From Candidatus Heimdallarchaeota archaeon (GTDB lineage Archaea > Asgardarchaeota > Heimdallarchaeia > JABLTI01), in NCBI GenBank assembly GCA_019056785.1, contig DXJV01000087.1:34707-98706 (forward strand): 64,000 nucleotides of DNA, read 5' to 3'. Under the pieces are notes generated by a model. It had not been told where the DNA came from. It saw only the letters and a program-made list of their open reading frames with translations, and searched no databases. Each line of letters begins with the position of its first letter. Position 1 is the stretch's first letter. Below are positions 5,927 to 15,096 of this stretch, one piece after another. A program made the translations under genes and the position numbers.

Positions 5927-8002
5927 TTAGGGTGCAACCTGAGAATATTTCCTTGTAATGGCAAATGATTTGAACTCAAAGCCTGTGCCGGTATAACCTG
6001 CTTTTCCAAAGAATTCCACCCACTGCAAACGCAGGGTTTGAATAAAGGAAAATAGCCCCTCAAGAGCAAGGATTACAAGAGCACCAATAGCAACTCCAAC
6101 ATAATTTAATGCACCCAAGTGATGCCCATCACCTACAAAATCTGTGAGTAAGAAAACATGTGAAAGTGCACCATGAACTGCATTCATTGCGAAAATTCGC
6201 GCATAGCTAACGGTATGGGAAAGTGTAGAAAGAAGGATGTCCAAAATTTCACCAATGCCATTAAACCCATGTGTTACTAGATAAATGGAGAGAATGATAA
6301 TTGGGCCGACAAAAGCTCCTAAAAAGAACCATAGTGAGCTGCCTATTTTAAAGAAGGGGATTTTCTGCCCTCGCCAAGATAAAAGCGCTAAATCAAAGGT
6401 TCCTGAGTTTGTAGCGGAAAACCAATTCATAAAGTTCGACCCGAAAGTAAAGACAAGAATGAATAATGCCCAATGCATAATTGCCCACATTAATGTGACC
6501 AGAAAAGCTTCTTTATAATGTTTATGTTTGATATTTGTCAGGAATCGCAAAATATAACCAATAGTCATATGGGTCATCCCAATGAGAAGCGATAATTCGA
6601 GCATTAGAATAACAGATTTCGCCCCGTTGTGTAACTCATTACTTTCAGGGCTGAACCACAAAGCCTTTGGTGCCCCATATTCATGAGTTATTCCAAAGTA
6701 TGAACCAAATAAAACACCAAAGATAATAGCTGAAATACCTGACACAATAATGAGCATCGCGCCTGATTTGAAATACCCTTGAATTTCACCCATAAAGTTA
6801 TTGGCATTCAGTTTCTTGTTCCTAAGAGTCAAACCATAAATTCCAAGAAGTGTAAATAATGCGCCATGACCAACATCCGCAAACATAATACCAAACATGA
6901 TTGGGAAAAAAATTTGAAGTATAAGAGCAGAATTAAATTCATTATAACCAGGAACACCATAAGCATTTACCAATGTCTGATAAACTCGAGCAAATTTTGG
7001 TGTAGAGGTCTTTGTCGGAAATTCTGACTCTTCAAAAACAGGTTTAGAAAATTCAATCACTCCGGTTTTCTCAGTTGCAGTGAGAATTGCTTTTTCAATT
7101 TTACTGGTTTTCTTTTTAGGAAGCCAGGCCCAAAAAGCAATATTTCGCTTTGTCGATCGAGTCATATTCTTGATTCGTAAAATATTCTCTTCAATTAGTA
7201 ATTGCTCATAATAAGCAAGAATGAAAGCACCTTTTTCTTCAATAATTTTCTCTGCATCCAAATGATATTCTTTTATTTTTGCCTCTAATTCCTCAATTTT
7301 CCGCAGGCTTTTTTCTTCCACTTTTTTTGGCTCACCAGAAATTCGTTCCGGAATGGTTATCTTTTCAAAGTCATAAGCTATTAATAACCGGTTTACATCT
7401 TCCTGGTATCTTTCCAAAAAGCCAATAGCCAGAAATGAGTAATTGCCCTCTGTTGAGGACTCTCGAAGGACAAAATTGCTATCTGTTATCGCATCAAGGT
7501 TCCATTTAAATCGGGGAAGAAGTTTCGTGTTGATACGACCAAAAATCATAGTGAAATATGGACGTTCCTCATCTAAATCTTCGAAGCTAAAGCCAACGGT
7601 TGCTAAATTTCGAGAAATGTCTATAATAGATTTGTTTTTTTGTAACTCTCGTTCTGCAAGAGAAATGCGATCGTTTAGTTGTTTCAGCTTAATAATATAT
7701 TCCTTATAAAATTGCTGTAATTGTTTTAAAACGTGCTTTGAATCGCGATCATCAATTTCTACCTTCTTTACTCTTTTCCCTACACGTTTTTCTACTTCAA
7801 AATCTGCAATTACTTGCTGAAACTCTTCCAAATATTCCTTGATCATTGTGCCATGTTCGTAAGAGGTGATATTAAATGGCTTTTTTTGAATATCGATTAT
7901 TTCAATATCCTCACAACTTGAAATGAAACGAAGAAGATTTCTTGAGTATTCAAGGGGAGCAACAACTTTTACTGTCAGCATTCTTTCTGGGACAAAGCTC
8001 AT
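5927..8002 (-). CDS. atpI: A/V-type ATP synthase subunit I (a)
   Basis: YGVPGYNE, FGIMFADVGHG, SYARIFA, LRLQWVEFF; start moved to ATG 8002 behind AGGTG. Confidence 0.96.
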   Translation of the reverse strand: MSFVPERMLTVKVVAPLEYSRNLLRFISSCEDIEIIDIQKKPFNITSYEHGTMIKEYLEEFQQVIADFEVEKRVGKRVKKVEIDDRDSKHVLKQLQQFYKEYIIKLKQLNDRISLAERELQKNKSIIDISRNLATVGFSFEDLDEERPYFTMIFGRINTKLLPRFKWNLDAITDSNFVLRESSTEGNYSFLAIGFLERYQEDVNRLLIAYDFEKITIPERISGEPKKVEEKSLRKIEELEAKIKEYHLDAEKIIEEKGAFILAYYEQLLIEENILRIKNMTRSTKRNIAFWAWLPKKKTSKIEKAILTATEKTGVIEFSKPVFEESEFPTKTSTPKFARVYQTLVNAYGVPGYNEFNSALILQIFFPIMFGIMFADVGHGALFTLLGIYGLTLRNKKLNANNFMGEIQGYFKSGAMLIIVSGISAIIFGVLFGSYFGITHEYGAPKALWFSPESNELHNGAKSVILMLELSLLIGMTHMTIGYILRFLTNIKHKHYKEAFLVTLMWAIMHWALFILVFTFGSNFMNWFSATNSGTFDLALLSWRGQKIPFFKIGSSLWFFLGAFVGPIIILSIYLVTHGFNGIGEILDILLSTLSHTVSYARIFAMNAVHGALSHVFLLTDFVGDGHHLGALNYVGVAIGALVILALEGLFSFIQTLRLQWVEFFGKAGYTGTGFEFKSFAITRKYSQVAP

Positions 8003-10138: not shown

Positions 10139-11221
10139 TCACAGTAAGATGATTTTATCAAGAATTTCCTCAGATGCTTTATCATGTATTTTACCCAAGA
10201 TTATCGTACGAAGATTTCGAATTTCTATTTCCTTCAAAAAGAAGAAAGCGGGATAGATGGTTATATTAAAACTTGCACCTCTGAAAATCGAATTAGCAAT
10301 ATGAACGATATGTTGATCAGCATATAAGTCGAAATTAGCGAGAGGAGTTAAACCAGTTTCAAGATTTGTGATGAGACGATTAGCGAGGTCCTTGAAAGCA
10401 GTTTCCTCTTTTATGAGTTTGAATGTCTCTTCAAAATCTTGTGCAGCGAGGAAACGCTCAAGCAATTGTTGTGAGAGAGGACAAAATTGAGTATAGATAA
10501 GCCATTTTTTGACCATAGCCGGTTGGATTCCAAAGGCTTTTGATCGCAGAATAATCTCCAAATTTTGAATGCCGATTTGTGCCTCAAAGAATCTTTTAGC
10601 TGATCGGTAATCTGCTCCCTTTAGGGATTGCAGTGTGTTACAAAGGGAATCATAATAAAATTGGTCGATAGCAATGATAAGTGGATAAACAATATCCAGA
10701 TAGCGATATTCTCCAATGACTTTTTCTAATGCAGAACGAAGAGCGGGATTTTCTAAACGGGAAATTAAATCTGGAATGTCTTTTGCTGCAAATAAGCTCT
10801 CTGTTTGGCGATTTTCTTCCTCCGATAGGCTGATAAGCATTCCTCTGGCATCTTCAAACCGATTTGCCCCGTAAAGACCCGAAAGTATGACTTTTATGTT
10901 GTTTAAAAAGAAACGAGAACCAAAAGCGGTAATAAATTGTTGGGAGCGAGGGGGAACGAATTTCCGAAAACTGTTAAATTGATCAACAAAGTTTTGAGTT
11001 AGACGCCGGTCAATTTCAATTAGATTCGGGTAATCTTTAACCATTTCCGAGCCAATTATCTCATGATAGTTTGTTTGCGCAAGCATCTGGCGAAGATTGT
11101 TAAGATCAGTAGCGCTTGCCAAAAGGTTGTATGTACCTGCAGAAAAGAGCATAGTACGTTGTGAGCGCATATAAACATTTAGAGGACCATAATCTCGAGC
11201 ATTTTTAAACATCGTCTTCAT
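10139..11221 (-). CDS. atpC: A/V-type ATP synthase subunit C (d)
   Basis: YxxLNxxMR start, NIKVIL, NLEIILR, EIEIRNLRTII repeats; adjacent to atpK. Confidence 0.88.
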   Translation of the reverse strand: MKTMFKNARDYGPLNVYMRSQRTMLFSAGTYNLLASATDLNNLRQMLAQTNYHEIIGSEMVKDYPNLIEIDRRLTQNFVDQFNSFRKFVPPRSQQFITAFGSRFFLNNIKVILSGLYGANRFEDARGMLISLSEEENRQTESLFAAKDIPDLISRLENPALRSALEKVIGEYRYLDIVYPLIIAIDQFYYDSLCNTLQSLKGADYRSAKRFFEAQIGIQNLEIILRSKAFGIQPAMVKKWLIYTQFCPLSQQLLERFLAAQDFEETFKLIKEETAFKDLANRLITNLETGLTPLANFDLYADQHIVHIANSIFRGASFNITIYPAFFFLKEIEIRNLRTIILGKIHDKASEEILDKIILL

Positions 11222-11402
11222 CTCTCGAATAATTTGAAGAGTTATCCAGATAAAACATTTTTTAAAGCTTCATCTGAAAATGACTCAACAGTTTAAAAAA
11301 AGAGCTGATTTATAATTCTTTTTGCTCATATCAGTAAAAAGCATTAATTGAAAAAAAGAGGGGAAAAGAATTCAACACTTGAATTCTTATTGATGACATT
11401 CA

Positions 11403-12287
11403 CTACTTCTCAACAATTTCGACGACTTCTTTCTTTTTCTTGGAAAAAGAAGAGGCGATGGATTCCATTGTTGCAGTTATTTCCTTGCTCATCTGCTTGA
11501 CAATTCACGCTTTGCCATGGATACGTCGTTTCAACCGATCTGGTAGTATCCATCCAAAGTAATCAATAATAATACTAATACTCGCTGTGATTCCCCGTAA
11601 GGTATGAACTAAACCGACCACAACGGGGATTTGGTGCATATTAGGCATTATATAAAAACTCGAAATCAACGATAATGTCATAATGAGTACAACCGGTGCC
11701 AAGATATAGGTGAATCCTTTTCTTGCCACAGGGTTTTCAACATCACGTTGAATGCAGATGAGTCTGAAAACGATTTGTACATGGATTAATGAAAAGACAG
11801 GCAAATAAATGGCTAAGCCATAAATTATTTGAGGTAAATAGAGGACAATTTCCACGCCCGCTAGAATGAATTTTTGATAAAACCGAGGATTCGGAACATC
11901 AAACATTATTTCTGCGGCCATTAAGGTAATGAAAATCGAGATAACAGCTGTTAAAAATACAGTTGTCATAGCACGAGCGAAATCCTTGTCCTGTAAAATG
12001 TGGCGATTAGAAAAGTAGTAGAAGATGTAAGCAAGAGAATAAAAGAAGGTATACGAAAGAATGAGATACCCCACCCAATGGCTGTCGCCCTGGTAGAAAT
12101 AAAGTGTTTCACTTAAAGCCGTGGCAATTTCACCAAAAGCAACAAATAGAAAGCTAATGGTCAACAATAAAGTACCAAGAGTTTTTTTCTTTAAAAATTG
12201 TCGGAACAACAAAAACACGAAAGCAAGTGCAAGAAGCGAAGCAAGATAGGAAATAATCAAAAAATACCATGTGAAAGCTAATCCCAT
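11403..12287 (-). CDS. 7-TM membrane protein (260 aa to TGA at 11505-11507; frame continues 33 codons to 11403)
   Basis: Seven hydrophobic segments followed by a basic amphipathic helix; starts 3 nt after the GTPase stop. Confidence 0.75.
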
Positions 12288-12290
12288 AGC

Positions 12291-12827
12291 TTAGACCTCC
12301 TTTAGCATTTTAATGAACCATGAAAATGAATCATATACACCTTCGCCGGTTCTTGCAGAAGTGGGGAAGCAAGCCCAGGTAATCGGTAAATCGATATCCA
12401 TGAGACCGAATTCTTCGATGAATTCTTTTCGAGAAAGACTATTAGGTAAGTCAACTTTATTTAGCAAGATTAACACAGGTGTTTCTTCGTTGATTTGTGT
12501 GTTAAGAATGTTGTAGAAAATTTCTTTCGCTTCTGCCAAGCGAACAACATCTGTACTATCAACCACAAACACAAGAGCATCTGACTTTTCATTAATTTGA
12601 TTCCAAAGTCCTCGAAAGTCTTCCTGACCACCAAGATCAAAAACATTTAAACGCAATTTTGGAAAATTAATTGTTTCACGATTTACCCCCATTGTTGGGA
12701 TAGTTTCGATAAATTCACCTTTTACCAAATAATTTAGTAGAGTGGTTTTTCCGGCTTTGTCTAAGCCACAAATAGTCATATTTACTTGTTTTGTCTACTT
12801 TTAAAGAGTTTTTATAAAAAAAGACAT
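12291..12827 (-). CDS. Arf-family small GTPase; N-terminal helix region disrupted (intact ORF from 12779)
   Basis: G1 GLDKAGKT, G2 TIPTMG, G3 DLGGQ, FRGLW, G4 NKVD, G5 TSA; upstream ATG 12827 with GGTGA is in frame but followed by TAA and TAG. Confidence 0.9.
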
Positions 12828-12872
12828 TTCTCAAATCACCTTGATTATTAAAAATATTAGGGGATACAATTT

Positions 12873-13386
12873 CTACCATAAGTCTTCTGCAAGTGATTTA
12901 GCTACTCGTTTGCCATTTGATTCCGCTTTATCCTTCTCTTCTTCAATTTTAACCTCAATGGTGGTCACAAAGCCAATTTTTATCTTGATGGTCTTTGACC
13001 CAAAGGCATTATAGATTGACGGCAAGATTTGTTGAAGAAGCTCAAGAAAGATTGCATCATTATTTTGCAACTCGGAAATAATAATGGAAAACAATTTTCG
13101 TACACTTTGGATATTATAATCGCTATTATCAAATACCACCACTAAAGAAGCGATATTATTACACTCGGTTTGGGAAGGAATGATAAAAACATAGCCCGAG
13201 ATTGCGCTACCGTTATTCATTACATTAGAAGTAAAATCGCCTGCCTTTGCACCGAAAGGCATAACTCTTAATAGTATTCTCATTTTTTAATGGCTGAGGT
13301 AAAATATCAGGGTAAACCTTAATGAGCTCCAAGCCATTTTTTCACATTTGAACTAAACAGACACTCACAGGTTTAATTTTGCTCAC
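12873..13386 (-). pseudogene. uDENN/longin-like protein, interrupted by TGA (13342-13344) and a frameshift near 13280
   Basis: Reconstructed MSKIKPVSVCLVQM*KNGLELIKVYPDILPQPLKNE/ILLRVMPFGAKAGDF...; beta-hairpin, helix, three-strand pattern. Confidence 0.6.
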
Positions 13387-13647
13387 CTAGAAAGTAAATG
13401 TTAGAAACTTCTTGAAAAGTAATATAAGTCTTTCACTTTAGGAAAATTTGAAAAAAAAAGTTCGGCTAAATAGGATTTTTTTTCAAAAAACAAGAGCGGA
13501 ATATTTTCGCTTTACAGCAGGGAATTAATTGGAACAAAGGAGGAACTGAGCGAGAAAACAGTTCTACATTTGAACCAATAGACATTAAAAGAAAAAAGAC
13601 TATTATCAACTAAAATTGATTAAAAGTTAAAACTAAGGAAAACAAAA

Positions 13648-15096
13648 ATGACCGATGGACAAGAAATAGCCGATTTTGCTATTGACTTTGCAACAAAACA
13701 AGGAGCAAAGTATGCAGAAGCCCGCTTTGAAGAAACAATGGCTGAAGGATATACAACCAGAAACGGCGTAATGATTGGTGGAGGGAAAAAGAACTTTGCT
13801 GGCATTGGTATGCGAGTTCTCACAAAAGAAGGAATGGGTTTTTGTTCTACAGCAAAATTGGATAAGGATGAGATTAAAAAAGCAATTAAAATTGCTGTGA
13901 AAATGGCTCGAGCGAGCAGAAGGAAGGAACCTATAAAGTTCTCAGAGGAAAAAGCTGTTCAAGCTAAATGGCAAACGCCTGTAGAAGAAGCTTTTGAGGA
14001 TATAGCGGATGAGGACAAAATACAATTTGTCCAGCAAATTGATAAAACATTAATGGAGCAAGAGTTTGGTTCAGCTTTGGTGACAAGAACATTAATACTT
14101 GATTTAACTCGGAACAAGAAATATTTTACAACAAACGAGGGAACAAAAATTGAAAGTGAAAAAAGCCTTATCGCTTTCTACACGTTCAATACTGCAAAAG
14201 GAGTGTTTGGAACCGAGCAACGATTCTATGGTCAAGCAGGAGCTATGGGTTGGGAATGGTTCAAAAAGGAGAAGATCCTCGATAAGATTATCGAGGACAA
14301 TCGTGCTCTTGTAAAAACAGCGAATCTTGCCAAAGAAGCTTCTCTCGGAGTTACCGATGTAATCGTCAGTGGCGAAGTAGCTGGAATTATTGCTCATGAA
14401 AATTGTGGGCACCCCTCAGAAGCAGACCGCATTCTCGGGCGAGAAGGAGCTCAAGCAGGCGAGTCATTCTATATTGACCTGTTAGAGAAAGGCACTCTTG
14501 GTGAAATTCAACTTGGTTCGGAGGTGGTGACAATCATTGACGACCCCACGCTCCCAGGAGGAGCAGGTTTTTATGAATACGATGATGAAGGCGTTAAAGC
14601 TCGCCCCCGATTTCTTATTAAAAACGGTAGGCTGAATGAATTACTCTTCAATCGGGAATTTGCCGCAAAATTCAACACCCAATCAAATGCAGCTGCCCGA
14701 GCAATAGGATATAATCGAGAACCGATCATTCGGATGGCTAACACTTATTTTGCACCGGGCAAGTTCACCCTTGAGGAATTGTTTGAAGATGTAAAAAAGG
14801 GCTTGTATATGAAAAGCTTCACAGAATGGAATATTGATGACCGTCGCTATCAAAGTAAATACGTTGGCTTAGAAGCATATATCATTGAAAATGGTGAATT
14901 GACGGAACAAATGGTTCGACGACCAATCCTCGAGTTAACTACCAAAGGAATCTTCGGCAGTGTAGATGCAGTTTCAAAGGAAACTGAATTTCCTTATGGA
15001 ACATGCGGTAAGAGCGATCCTGCTCAGGGAGCACCATGCTGGATGGGAGGGGCCCAGCTTCGGTTACGGAACATTCGACTTGGAGGCGGAAAGTAA
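13648..15096 (+). CDS. tldD: TldD metalloprotease subunit
   Basis: HENCGHPSEAD (HExxxH), DDEG, RMANT, C-terminal CGK. Confidence 0.95.
   Translation: MTDGQEIADFAIDFATKQGAKYAEARFEETMAEGYTTRNGVMIGGGKKNFAGIGMRVLTKEGMGFCSTAKLDKDEIKKAIKIAVKMARASRRKEPIKFSEEKAVQAKWQTPVEEAFEDIADEDKIQFVQQIDKTLMEQEFGSALVTRTLILDLTRNKKYFTTNEGTKIESEKSLIAFYTFNTAKGVFGTEQRFYGQAGAMGWEWFKKEKILDKIIEDNRALVKTANLAKEASLGVTDVIVSGEVAGIIAHENCGHPSEADRILGREGAQAGESFYIDLLEKGTLGEIQLGSEVVTIIDDPTLPGGAGFYEYDDEGVKARPRFLIKNGRLNELLFNREFAAKFNTQSNAAARAIGYNREPIIRMANTYFAPGKFTLEELFEDVKKGLYMKSFTEWNIDDRRYQSKYVGLEAYIIENGELTEQMVRRPILELTTKGIFGSVDAVSKETEFPYGTCGKSDPAQGAPCWMGGAQLRLRNIRLGGGK

Follow-up and report, generated by a model that had tools for sequence, protein, structure and literature searches.

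Within the 64,000-nucleotide (nt) stretch of Candidatus Heimdallarchaeota archaeon DNA analyzed here (the window; GenBank assembly GCA_019056785.1, contig DXJV01000087.1, positions 34,707 to 98,706 of the forward strand), window positions 11403-13386 hold a cassette of three genes that encode a longin-like protein (gene A), an Arf-family GTPase (gene B), and a seven-transmembrane (7TM) protein (gene C). All three are co-oriented on the minus strand, and the coordinates and close packing given in a preliminary description of this DNA are correct: 45 nt lie between the stop codon of A (12875-12873) and the ancestral ATG of B at 12827, a spacing that holds when B is counted from this upstream in-frame ATG, and 3 nt lie between the stop codon of B (12293-12291) and the ATG of C at 12287. 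That description regarded the genes as a candidate module of membrane sensor, GTPase switch, and a longin acting as guanine nucleotide exchange factor (GEF) or adaptor, and anticipated that the reading frames would need repair. The association of membrane protein, Arf switch, and longin as one unit is real, but the GEF part of the proposal has lost ground, and the copy in the window is itself decaying: comparison with intact paralogues, which lie elsewhere in the genome, identifies four in-frame stop codons and one frameshift, spread over A, B, and C.

The A-B-C arrangement is far beyond chance. In the source genome, a 2.87-Mb metagenome-assembled genome (MAG) of 102 contigs and 82.5% completeness that contains 29 small-GTPase matches, tblastn finds the order five times, on contigs C49 (the window), C11, C14, C88, and C60, and the copies on C11, C14, and C88 are intact; the three genes of the C11 copy lie at L001 5124-5618, 5652-6179, and 6191-7132. 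A survey of Asgard genomes, which the preliminary description had proposed, bears out the conservation of the triplet. It covered full-length relatives of A and C in 400 genomes of the phylum and found the A family in 9 and the C family in 8 of the 11 genomes of the source genome's own family; the numbers are 14 and 18 among the 31 genomes of a sister family that belongs to the same class, and a genome may have up to nine copies. The A-B-C or A-C arrangement occurs at ∼30 loci of these two Heimdallarchaeial families, with 45-600 nt between A and C, and these loci include 23 distinct triplets and eight A-C doublets. The doublets (L040-L047, located in the relatives G081, G084, G085, G086, G088, and G090) have no cassette-type Arf gene within ∼3 kb and retain the invariant longin arginine discussed below; one of them, L046, has a 7TM gene that two TAA stops interrupt. 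The order longin-7TM-Arf is found in one genome of another Asgard family (G126 contig C214, L035 1376-3715), where a TGA divides the longin gene into two parts and the Arf protein, of 295 residues, has an extra C-terminal domain of ∼110 residues. Since the doublets lack the Arf gene and this last locus has the order A-C-B, the longin and the 7TM protein are the constant pair. Distant A-like and C-like proteins are present throughout the phylum, and beyond the two Heimdallarchaeial families they are side by side in only two other genomes; in public records of the same proteins, the locus tags are two apart.

Over the 23 triplets, the pairwise distances of A, B, and C correlate with r values of 0.87-0.91 (Mantel test; none of 2000 permutations gave a value as high), and thus the three genes duplicate and diverge together. 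The 7TM protein evolves fastest, with a mean identity of 29%, compared with 49% for A and 55% for B. The cassette is a conserved three-gene unit that has been duplicated and inherited as a block.

The product of gene B is a clear Arf, as the preliminary description had recognized. It matches Pfam Arf (PF00025) with an E value of 2.5e-44 and 151.2 bits (cut-off 22.3), and all of the G1-G5 motifs can be read (GLDKAGKT, TIPTMG, DLGGQ, NKVD, and TSA), as can FRGLW. The traces of an N-terminal amphipathic helix that were also recorded there correspond to an in-frame remnant, interrupted by a TAA and a TAG, which aligns with paralogues such as MSFLKRLFRQRTKR; the window B has lost the helix, whereas the intact paralogues and the homologue from the relative G090 have it, with basic character. 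Asgard Arfs bind membranes through their N-terminal helices in eukaryotic cells (PMC11914678). No copy of B has the Gly2 required for myristoylation. An Arf that has the DLGGQ motif and lacks an intrinsic arginine depends on the finger of a GTPase-activating protein (GAP) supplied in trans, and because B has DLGGQ but no intrinsic arginine, it would need such a finger. In the case of ARF1, it can be supplied by a pair of longin proteins, C9orf72-SMCR8 (PMC8213707).

Intact A proteins have 162-173 residues and are modeled as one longin domain followed by a disordered tail. The AlphaFold2 model of the longin domain from the C11 copy (predicted local distance difference test score, pLDDT, 85.5) has as its top Foldseek matches in the PDB the longins of GATOR1 (NPRL2/NPRL3) and of the yeast SEA complex (SEACIT), with E values of 6e-8 to 1e-4 and, for the GATOR1 chains, template modeling (TM) scores of 0.64-0.68. 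These are followed by a Lokiarchaeal longin, FLCN/FNIP, DENND10/DENND1, and SMCR8. The loop ahead of strand 5 contains an arginine (Arg71 in the C11 copy) that is invariant in 40 members of the A family and that the doublets and distant copies also retain. Its offset from the N terminus is about that expected for Arg78 of NPRL2, a comparison of numbering and not a residue-by-residue match. Because the closest folds are those of the GATOR1/SEACIT longins, the DENND matches are far weaker, and the arginine is invariant, a GAP role for A is, on the evidence of the predicted structure, more likely than a GEF role. The preliminary description's assignment of A as a uDENN/longin protein consequently stands as to the longin fold but not as to DENN, and the exchange activity that it attached to DENN/longin domains is disfavored for A by best matches that are GAP-type longins and by the invariant arginine. 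GAP-type longins have been reported from Heimdallarchaeia in a study that left their GTPase partner as a question, Arf-related or Rag (PMC12290439), and NPRL2-like longins, often fused to two-component domains, have been described in Asgard archaea (Liu et al., bioRxiv 10.1101/2020.10.19.343400). The synteny described here points to an Arf-related GTPase as the partner of the GAP-type longins.

The AlphaFold2 model of C (mean pLDDT 93.8, predicted TM score 0.88) shows seven long helices, with a β hairpin inserted between the fourth and the fifth, and then a short amphipathic helix 8 of basic character, in agreement with the seven membrane segments and basic amphipathic helix read previously from the sequence. 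The predicted topology places the N terminus outside and the C terminus inside, with 15 lysines and arginines on the inside and 2 on the outside. Conservation is greatest in the cytoplasmic loops and helix 8 (2.49 bits), compared with 1.64 bits in the membrane and 1.27 outside, and the conserved sites, on the predicted cytoplasmic face, are concentrated in the loop that follows helix 1, the end of helix 3 (motif RHILxD), and helix 8 (motif GWIxPxWLKRR); the KKRTxGT loop is likewise a conserved cytoplasmic motif. From this distribution over the model, we infer that the constrained function of C is probably the docking of a cytoplasmic partner, with the outside free to vary. An acidic end motif (..VEVSE/..VEISEQ) follows a variable linker in most cassette 7TM proteins (e.g. 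L001 7100-7132, L015, and window 11406-11430) and possibly serves as a short linear motif bound by a partner; the severed tail of the window copy keeps this family character (..VVEIVEK compared with ..IVEVSEQ).

The C family is small, with 93 representatives among 1.84 billion proteins, and its resemblance to G protein-coupled receptors (GPCRs) is one of topology. Foldseek of C against the PDB returns only GPCRs, and weakly (E values of 1.5e-3 or worse, TM scores of 0.5-0.58), but microbial rhodopsins score the same against this fold, which thus fails to point to GPCRs in particular; C has no match to the 7tm Pfam families and no sequence similarity to GPCRs. The closest models are predicted structures of HisKA_7TM (PF16927) modules, the input parts of kinases, cyclases, and HD proteins of bacteria and archaea (TM scores of 0.69-0.76 and root mean square deviations of 3.1-3.6 over 220-236 residues), and in the language-model clusters nearest to C, PF16927 is present in 10-25% of the members (score 0.87), which serves as a lead only. 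Membership in HisKA_7TM by sequence was considered and rejected: hhalign of the C family with four Asgard HisKA_7TM domains gave a P of 0.36, no better than reversed decoys, PF16927 was not found in 50 members of the C family at E values up to 1, and Pfam as a whole yielded only noise in them. True HisKA_7TM proteins of ∼600-630 residues, sometimes in tandem, occur in a sister Heimdallarchaeial family (G076, G071, G058, and G064; L048-L051 and L057), and a genome search for PF16927 found true members only there and none in the source genome's own genus.

Taken together, these observations make it on balance probable that the cassette combines a longin of the NPRL2/FLCN/SMCR8 type, acting as a GAP, with its own Arf and with a stand-alone 7TM protein that docks or gates them, and that the window copy no longer functions as a unit. 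GTP-bound Arf would be held on the membrane by its basic amphipathic N-terminal helix, and the longin, probably as a dimer, would turn it off with an arginine finger, in the manner of C9orf72-SMCR8 acting on ARF1. The 7TM protein would use helix 8 and its conserved loops on the cytoplasmic side to dock or gate the longin-Arf pair, and the Arf switch would thereby be made responsive to a membrane or external cue. The function would be carried by the three intact copies on C11, C14, and C88. It should be noted that several observations weigh against this account. Where the loop ahead of strand 2 would have the GP motif that has been proposed as a mark of GAP longins (PMC12290439), the A family has an invariant glycine followed by a near-invariant leucine (..KGLEL..) and not proline. 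A has no match by HMMER to NPRL2, FLCN, SMCR8, any solved chain, or any Pfam family, the Pfam scans of 40 A members giving only noise. A consists of one domain of 165 residues, in contrast to the eukaryotic GAP longins, which act as heterodimers and have additional domains. Many longins are GEFs or adaptors, and most characterized longin assemblies are GEFs (PMC12290439). The doublets indicate that an Arf gene is not always required beside A and C, and the near-perfect G domain of the window Arf makes a residual role from its internal ATG possible. A complex prediction for the 7TM protein and longin of the intact C11 copy, entered as alignments, scored 0.02 against a mark of 0.32; it was run without controls and weighs neither way.

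The alternative that the longin is a GEF or adaptor, and that the 7TM protein and longin together load the Arf with GTP, as DENN, Mon1-Ccz1, and TRAPP do with Rabs, draws on the incomplete GP mark and on the prevalence of GEFs among longin assemblies, and also on the presence of the uDENN/longin domains of DENND1 and DENND10 among the structural matches. The latter are weak (E values of 5e-3 to 1e-2), four to five orders worse than the GATOR1/SEACIT matches, and A, as a single longin domain, has neither the core DENN nor the dDENN module and has an invariant arginine where a finger is expected; we consider the exchange-factor alternative improbable. A role for the cassette in membrane remodeling or sorting, in which the Arf would be recruited by the 7TM protein as a landmark or cargo and would in turn bring in effectors, with the longin setting the time of release, would suit the membrane binding of Asgard Arf helices, which the intact paralogues possess, and also the pattern of conservation in C, since a protein conserved only on its cytoplasmic face could be an anchor as well as a receptor. 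However, there are no coat, adaptor, or endosomal sorting complex required for transport (ESCRT) genes next to the cassettes examined, the nearest predicted folds of C are sensor input modules, and the many diverged copies per genome, the fast outer loops, and the frequent pseudogenes are more like a sensory repertoire, which makes such a role rather unlikely. A stronger form of the proposal would make the 7TM protein a genuine receptor with direct control over the nucleotide state of its Arf partner, either as an exchange factor or by capture and release of the longin GAP; this too is doubtful at present.

The state of the window copy can be read from a comparison with the intact paralogues and with the intact nearest homologue in G090. 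In gene A, there is a TGA at an invariant glycine, an extra T, replacement of the invariant arginine by cysteine, and a change of KISS to KIGF; the N-terminal remnant matches the N termini of four of four paralogous A genes by tblastn. In gene C, the tryptophan of PDWLKRR is replaced by arginine and the next conserved tryptophan by a TGA that severs 33 codons, and the genome hidden Markov model match reads through this one TGA. Of the columns conserved in each family, the window copy departs from 7 of 38 in A and from 4 of 21 in C, where the mean for other copies is 1.1 and 0.65, respectively, but B departs from only 3 of 48, two of them upstream of the ATG at 12779. To judge from these reading frames, the window copy is no longer functional as a unit and has the character of a decaying pseudo-operon. 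The features of the locus are collected in Table 1; a terminator-like hairpin (statistically weak) is placed after the ancestral end of gene C at 11403 and not after the premature stop at 11505.

Table 1. Positions of genes, remnants, lesions, and candidate signals of the cassette in the window
Feature	Position	Strand	Remarks
Possible archaeal TATA box, TTATATTA	13420..13427	-	Read by eye; ∼38 nt upstream of the ancestral GTG of gene A
Gene A open reading frame (ORF; longin-like)	13283-12873	-	136 amino acids (aa); in-frame remnant upstream, back to GTG 13386
Gene A N-terminal remnant	13264..13386	-	41 codons; longin strands 1-2 and helix 1; contains TGA 13344-13342
Extra T (frameshift in gene A)	13263	-	Between codons ..IKS and MPFGAK..; from frame comparison with intact paralogues
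Gene A remaining frame	12873..13262	-	ECNN for ERDN (invariant Arg to Cys); KISS to KIGF
Gene B ORF (Arf)	12779-12291	-	162 aa; in-frame remnant upstream, from ATG 12827
Gene B N-terminal amphipathic helix remnant	12780..12827	-	TAA 12803-12801 and TAG 12797-12795; Lys/Arg in paralogues
Gene B G domain, intact	12291..12779	-	162 aa from internal ATG; G1-G5 all present
GGAGGT ribosome binding site of gene C	12295..12300	-	Within the 3' end of gene B; 7 nt ahead of ATG 12287
Gene C ORF (7TM)	12287-11505	-	260 aa; tail remnant down to 11403
Gene C 7TM region and helix 8	11505..12287	-	260 aa; TGA stop in place of conserved Trp; PDWLKRR to PDRLKRR
Gene C severed C-terminal tail	11403..11504	-	33 codons and TAG; stop-to-stop ORF; aligned to paralogues and the intact G090 homologue
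Terminator-like perfect 10-bp hairpin, then T-rich run	11351..11388	-	-8.1 kcal/mol; z -1.65 (statistically weak)

It could be argued that the window copy still works in shortened form, with an Arf that starts at the ATG at 12779 and lacks the helix, a 7TM protein without its tail, and a longin shortened at the N terminus, or else by read-through of its stops, since the Arf G domain is nearly unchanged, gene C retains its ribosome binding site and 260 of ∼293 codons, and the set of lesions is stable across several samples. However, the truncated longin would lack strands 1-2 and the invariant arginine, C would lack two near-invariant tryptophans, and no ribosome binding site precedes the ATG at 12779. 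Recoding of stop codons, including selenocysteine insertion, was examined and discarded: TGA, TAA, and TAG are found at positions of glycine, lysine/arginine, and tryptophan, three kinds of stop that no single recoding would accommodate, a frameshift accompanies them, and the neighboring genes are long clean ORFs in the standard code (table 11). A working shortened copy is accordingly given little credence. That the lesions are assembly or sequencing errors in an intact cassette, as the fragmented and incomplete MAG might suggest, is extremely improbable, since four independent metagenome assemblies from different samples that span the cassette have all five stop and frameshift lesions, and four of the five are substitutions and not homopolymer indels; the lesions are therefore real. 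Over 2401 nt, the assemblies are 99.87% identical, and the only three bases at which the MAG differs from the other four (13200, 13203, and 13212) fall within 13 nt in the broken longin gene; two shorter contigs hold only part of the cassette. Decay is not confined to the window. In the copy on C60, the longin and 7TM genes look intact and the Arf gene is dead (L004 ∼6200-6760, minus strand), with the P-loop glycine changed to valine, the catalytic glutamine of DxxGQ lost, a TGA at the interswitch tryptophan, and a TAA. The decay of the window copy, of the C60 Arf, and of the 7TM gene in one doublet indicates that copies of the family arise and are lost in a birth-and-death process.

Several eukaryotic longin proteins are GAPs, namely NPRL2-NPRL3 of GATOR1, which acts on RagA/B, FLCN-FNIP, which acts on RagC/D, and C9orf72-SMCR8, and they have the longin fold in common with A. 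The substrate of the last is ARF1 (PMC8213707), and A is likewise paired, by gene order, with an Arf-family GTPase. Unlike these proteins, A has no DENN or NPRL2 C-terminal domain, and there is no second longin gene in the cassette. A link between such a GAP and a membrane protein is known from the LYCHOS/GPR155-GATOR1-Rag system, in which a GPCR-like membrane protein binds the NPRL2/3 GAP and controls a small GTPase (PMC11525196; bioRxiv 10.1101/2024.11.21.624772). LYCHOS is a fusion of a transporter and a GPCR-like part with 17 transmembrane segments, is located on lysosomes, and its GTPase is Rag, whereas the cassette has a 7TM protein and an Arf. Among prokaryotes, the actinobacterial conservons (CvnA-D) and MglA-MglB are operons that combine a membrane sensor, a regulator of the roadblock/longin superfamily that is likely to be a GAP, and a small Ras-superfamily GTPase (PMC13621833, PMC13343842). 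The conservon core has four proteins (a histidine-kinase-like sensor, a roadblock protein, a DUF742 protein, and an MglA-like GTPase), and one of the four, CvnC, is a likely GEF. In the cassette there are three genes, the 7TM protein has no kinase, and the GTPase is of Arf type; the resemblance is functional only. By analogy, we infer that LYCHOS-GATOR1 would be the closest eukaryotic logic and the conservon the closest prokaryotic one. The HisKA_7TM modules have the fold of C, but no output domain, whether kinase, cyclase, or HD, is fused to C; by the same analogy, its output would be the neighboring GTPase pair.

The GTPase itself belongs to an Arf family, ArfR/AArf, that is known from Asgard archaea (bioRxiv 10.1101/2024.02.28.582541; PMC11914678); these two papers make no mention of gene neighborhoods or membrane partners. 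An Asgard operon that encodes a roadblock protein (LAMTOR1-like), a Rab-like GTPase, and a DENN protein has been described (bioRxiv 10.1101/2020.10.19.343400), but it has no 7TM protein, and its GTPase is not an Arf. A preprint of 2026 that lists Asgard “7TM proteins”, along with structural clusters resembling GPCRs, makes no link to a GTPase. No published description of a longin-Arf-7TM cassette was found in a full-text literature search. The features that the model of C shares with the receptors of GPCR-heterotrimeric G protein systems are its seven helices, with the N terminus outside and the C terminus inside, the hairpin connecting helices 4 and 5, the amphipathic helix 8, and a conserved motif where helix 3 ends on the cytoplasmic side. 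B comes from the family nearest to Gα but lacks the helical domain, for which its 162-178 residues leave no room; it matches Gα (PF00503) with 44.3 bits, below the cut-off of 48.8, and over residues 27-111 only. The cassette, unlike the heterotrimeric systems, has no Gβ or Gγ proteins. The suggestion in the preliminary description that the module is an analogue or antecedent of 7TM-G protein signaling is thus tenable in its first part and unsupported in its second, there being no sequence link to GPCRs or to Gα.

Asgard archaea have many Arf-like GTPases and longins, and on their native partners the cassette brings a concrete candidate answer, in particular to the partner question raised with the GAP-type longins (PMC12290439). 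In the triplets, a longin is encoded beside its own Arf and, more constantly, beside a 7TM protein, in matched sets that have co-diverged over many duplications. They are defined objects for biochemistry and a possible archaeal counterpart of the logic of sensor, longin GAP, and small GTPase that controls mTORC1 at lysosomes. The decayed window copy can be viewed as part of a birth-and-death turnover of the family similar to that of sensory receptor repertoires. If the 7TM protein were indeed a receptor, the system would represent prokaryotic 7TM-receptor-to-small-G-protein signaling in the archaea most closely related to eukaryotes, expanded there into a repertoire of matched triplets that evolve rapidly.

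The cassette is flanked by a gene for A-type ATPase subunit C (10139-11221) and by a divergent tldD/pmbA pair that starts at 13648. In other genomes of the genus (G085 contig C62 and G084 contig C41), the interval between the ATPase gene and tldD contains a gene for a pyridoxal phosphate (PLP)-dependent synthase-like protein or almost nothing, and the position of the cassette in the window is therefore lineage-specific. The cassette nearest to the window copy is intact and lies at a different site, on contig C37 of G090; it is only 67% identical in DNA, and synonymous sites are consequently saturated. Scans of A, B, and C with the PADLOC defense models gave no match, an NCBIfam scan found nothing for A or C, and a profile of the A family matched only nanobodies, spuriously, among PDB sequences. 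A scan for σ70 promoters and terminators uses a bacterial model and is not applicable to an archaeon. Directly upstream of the intact C11 cassette is a divergently oriented gene for a small GTPase of 170 residues (L001 4303-4815, minus strand) that matches the cassette-Arf profile weakly (E value 4e-11). The next-closest Arf paralogue, with 48% identity, is encoded on contig C47 of the source genome (G000 contig C47 21443-24998, minus strand), downstream of genes for a 297-residue protein of unknown family and a 669-residue protein with ∼10 transmembrane segments, and this group may be another type of cassette composed of a membrane protein, a regulator, and an Arf.

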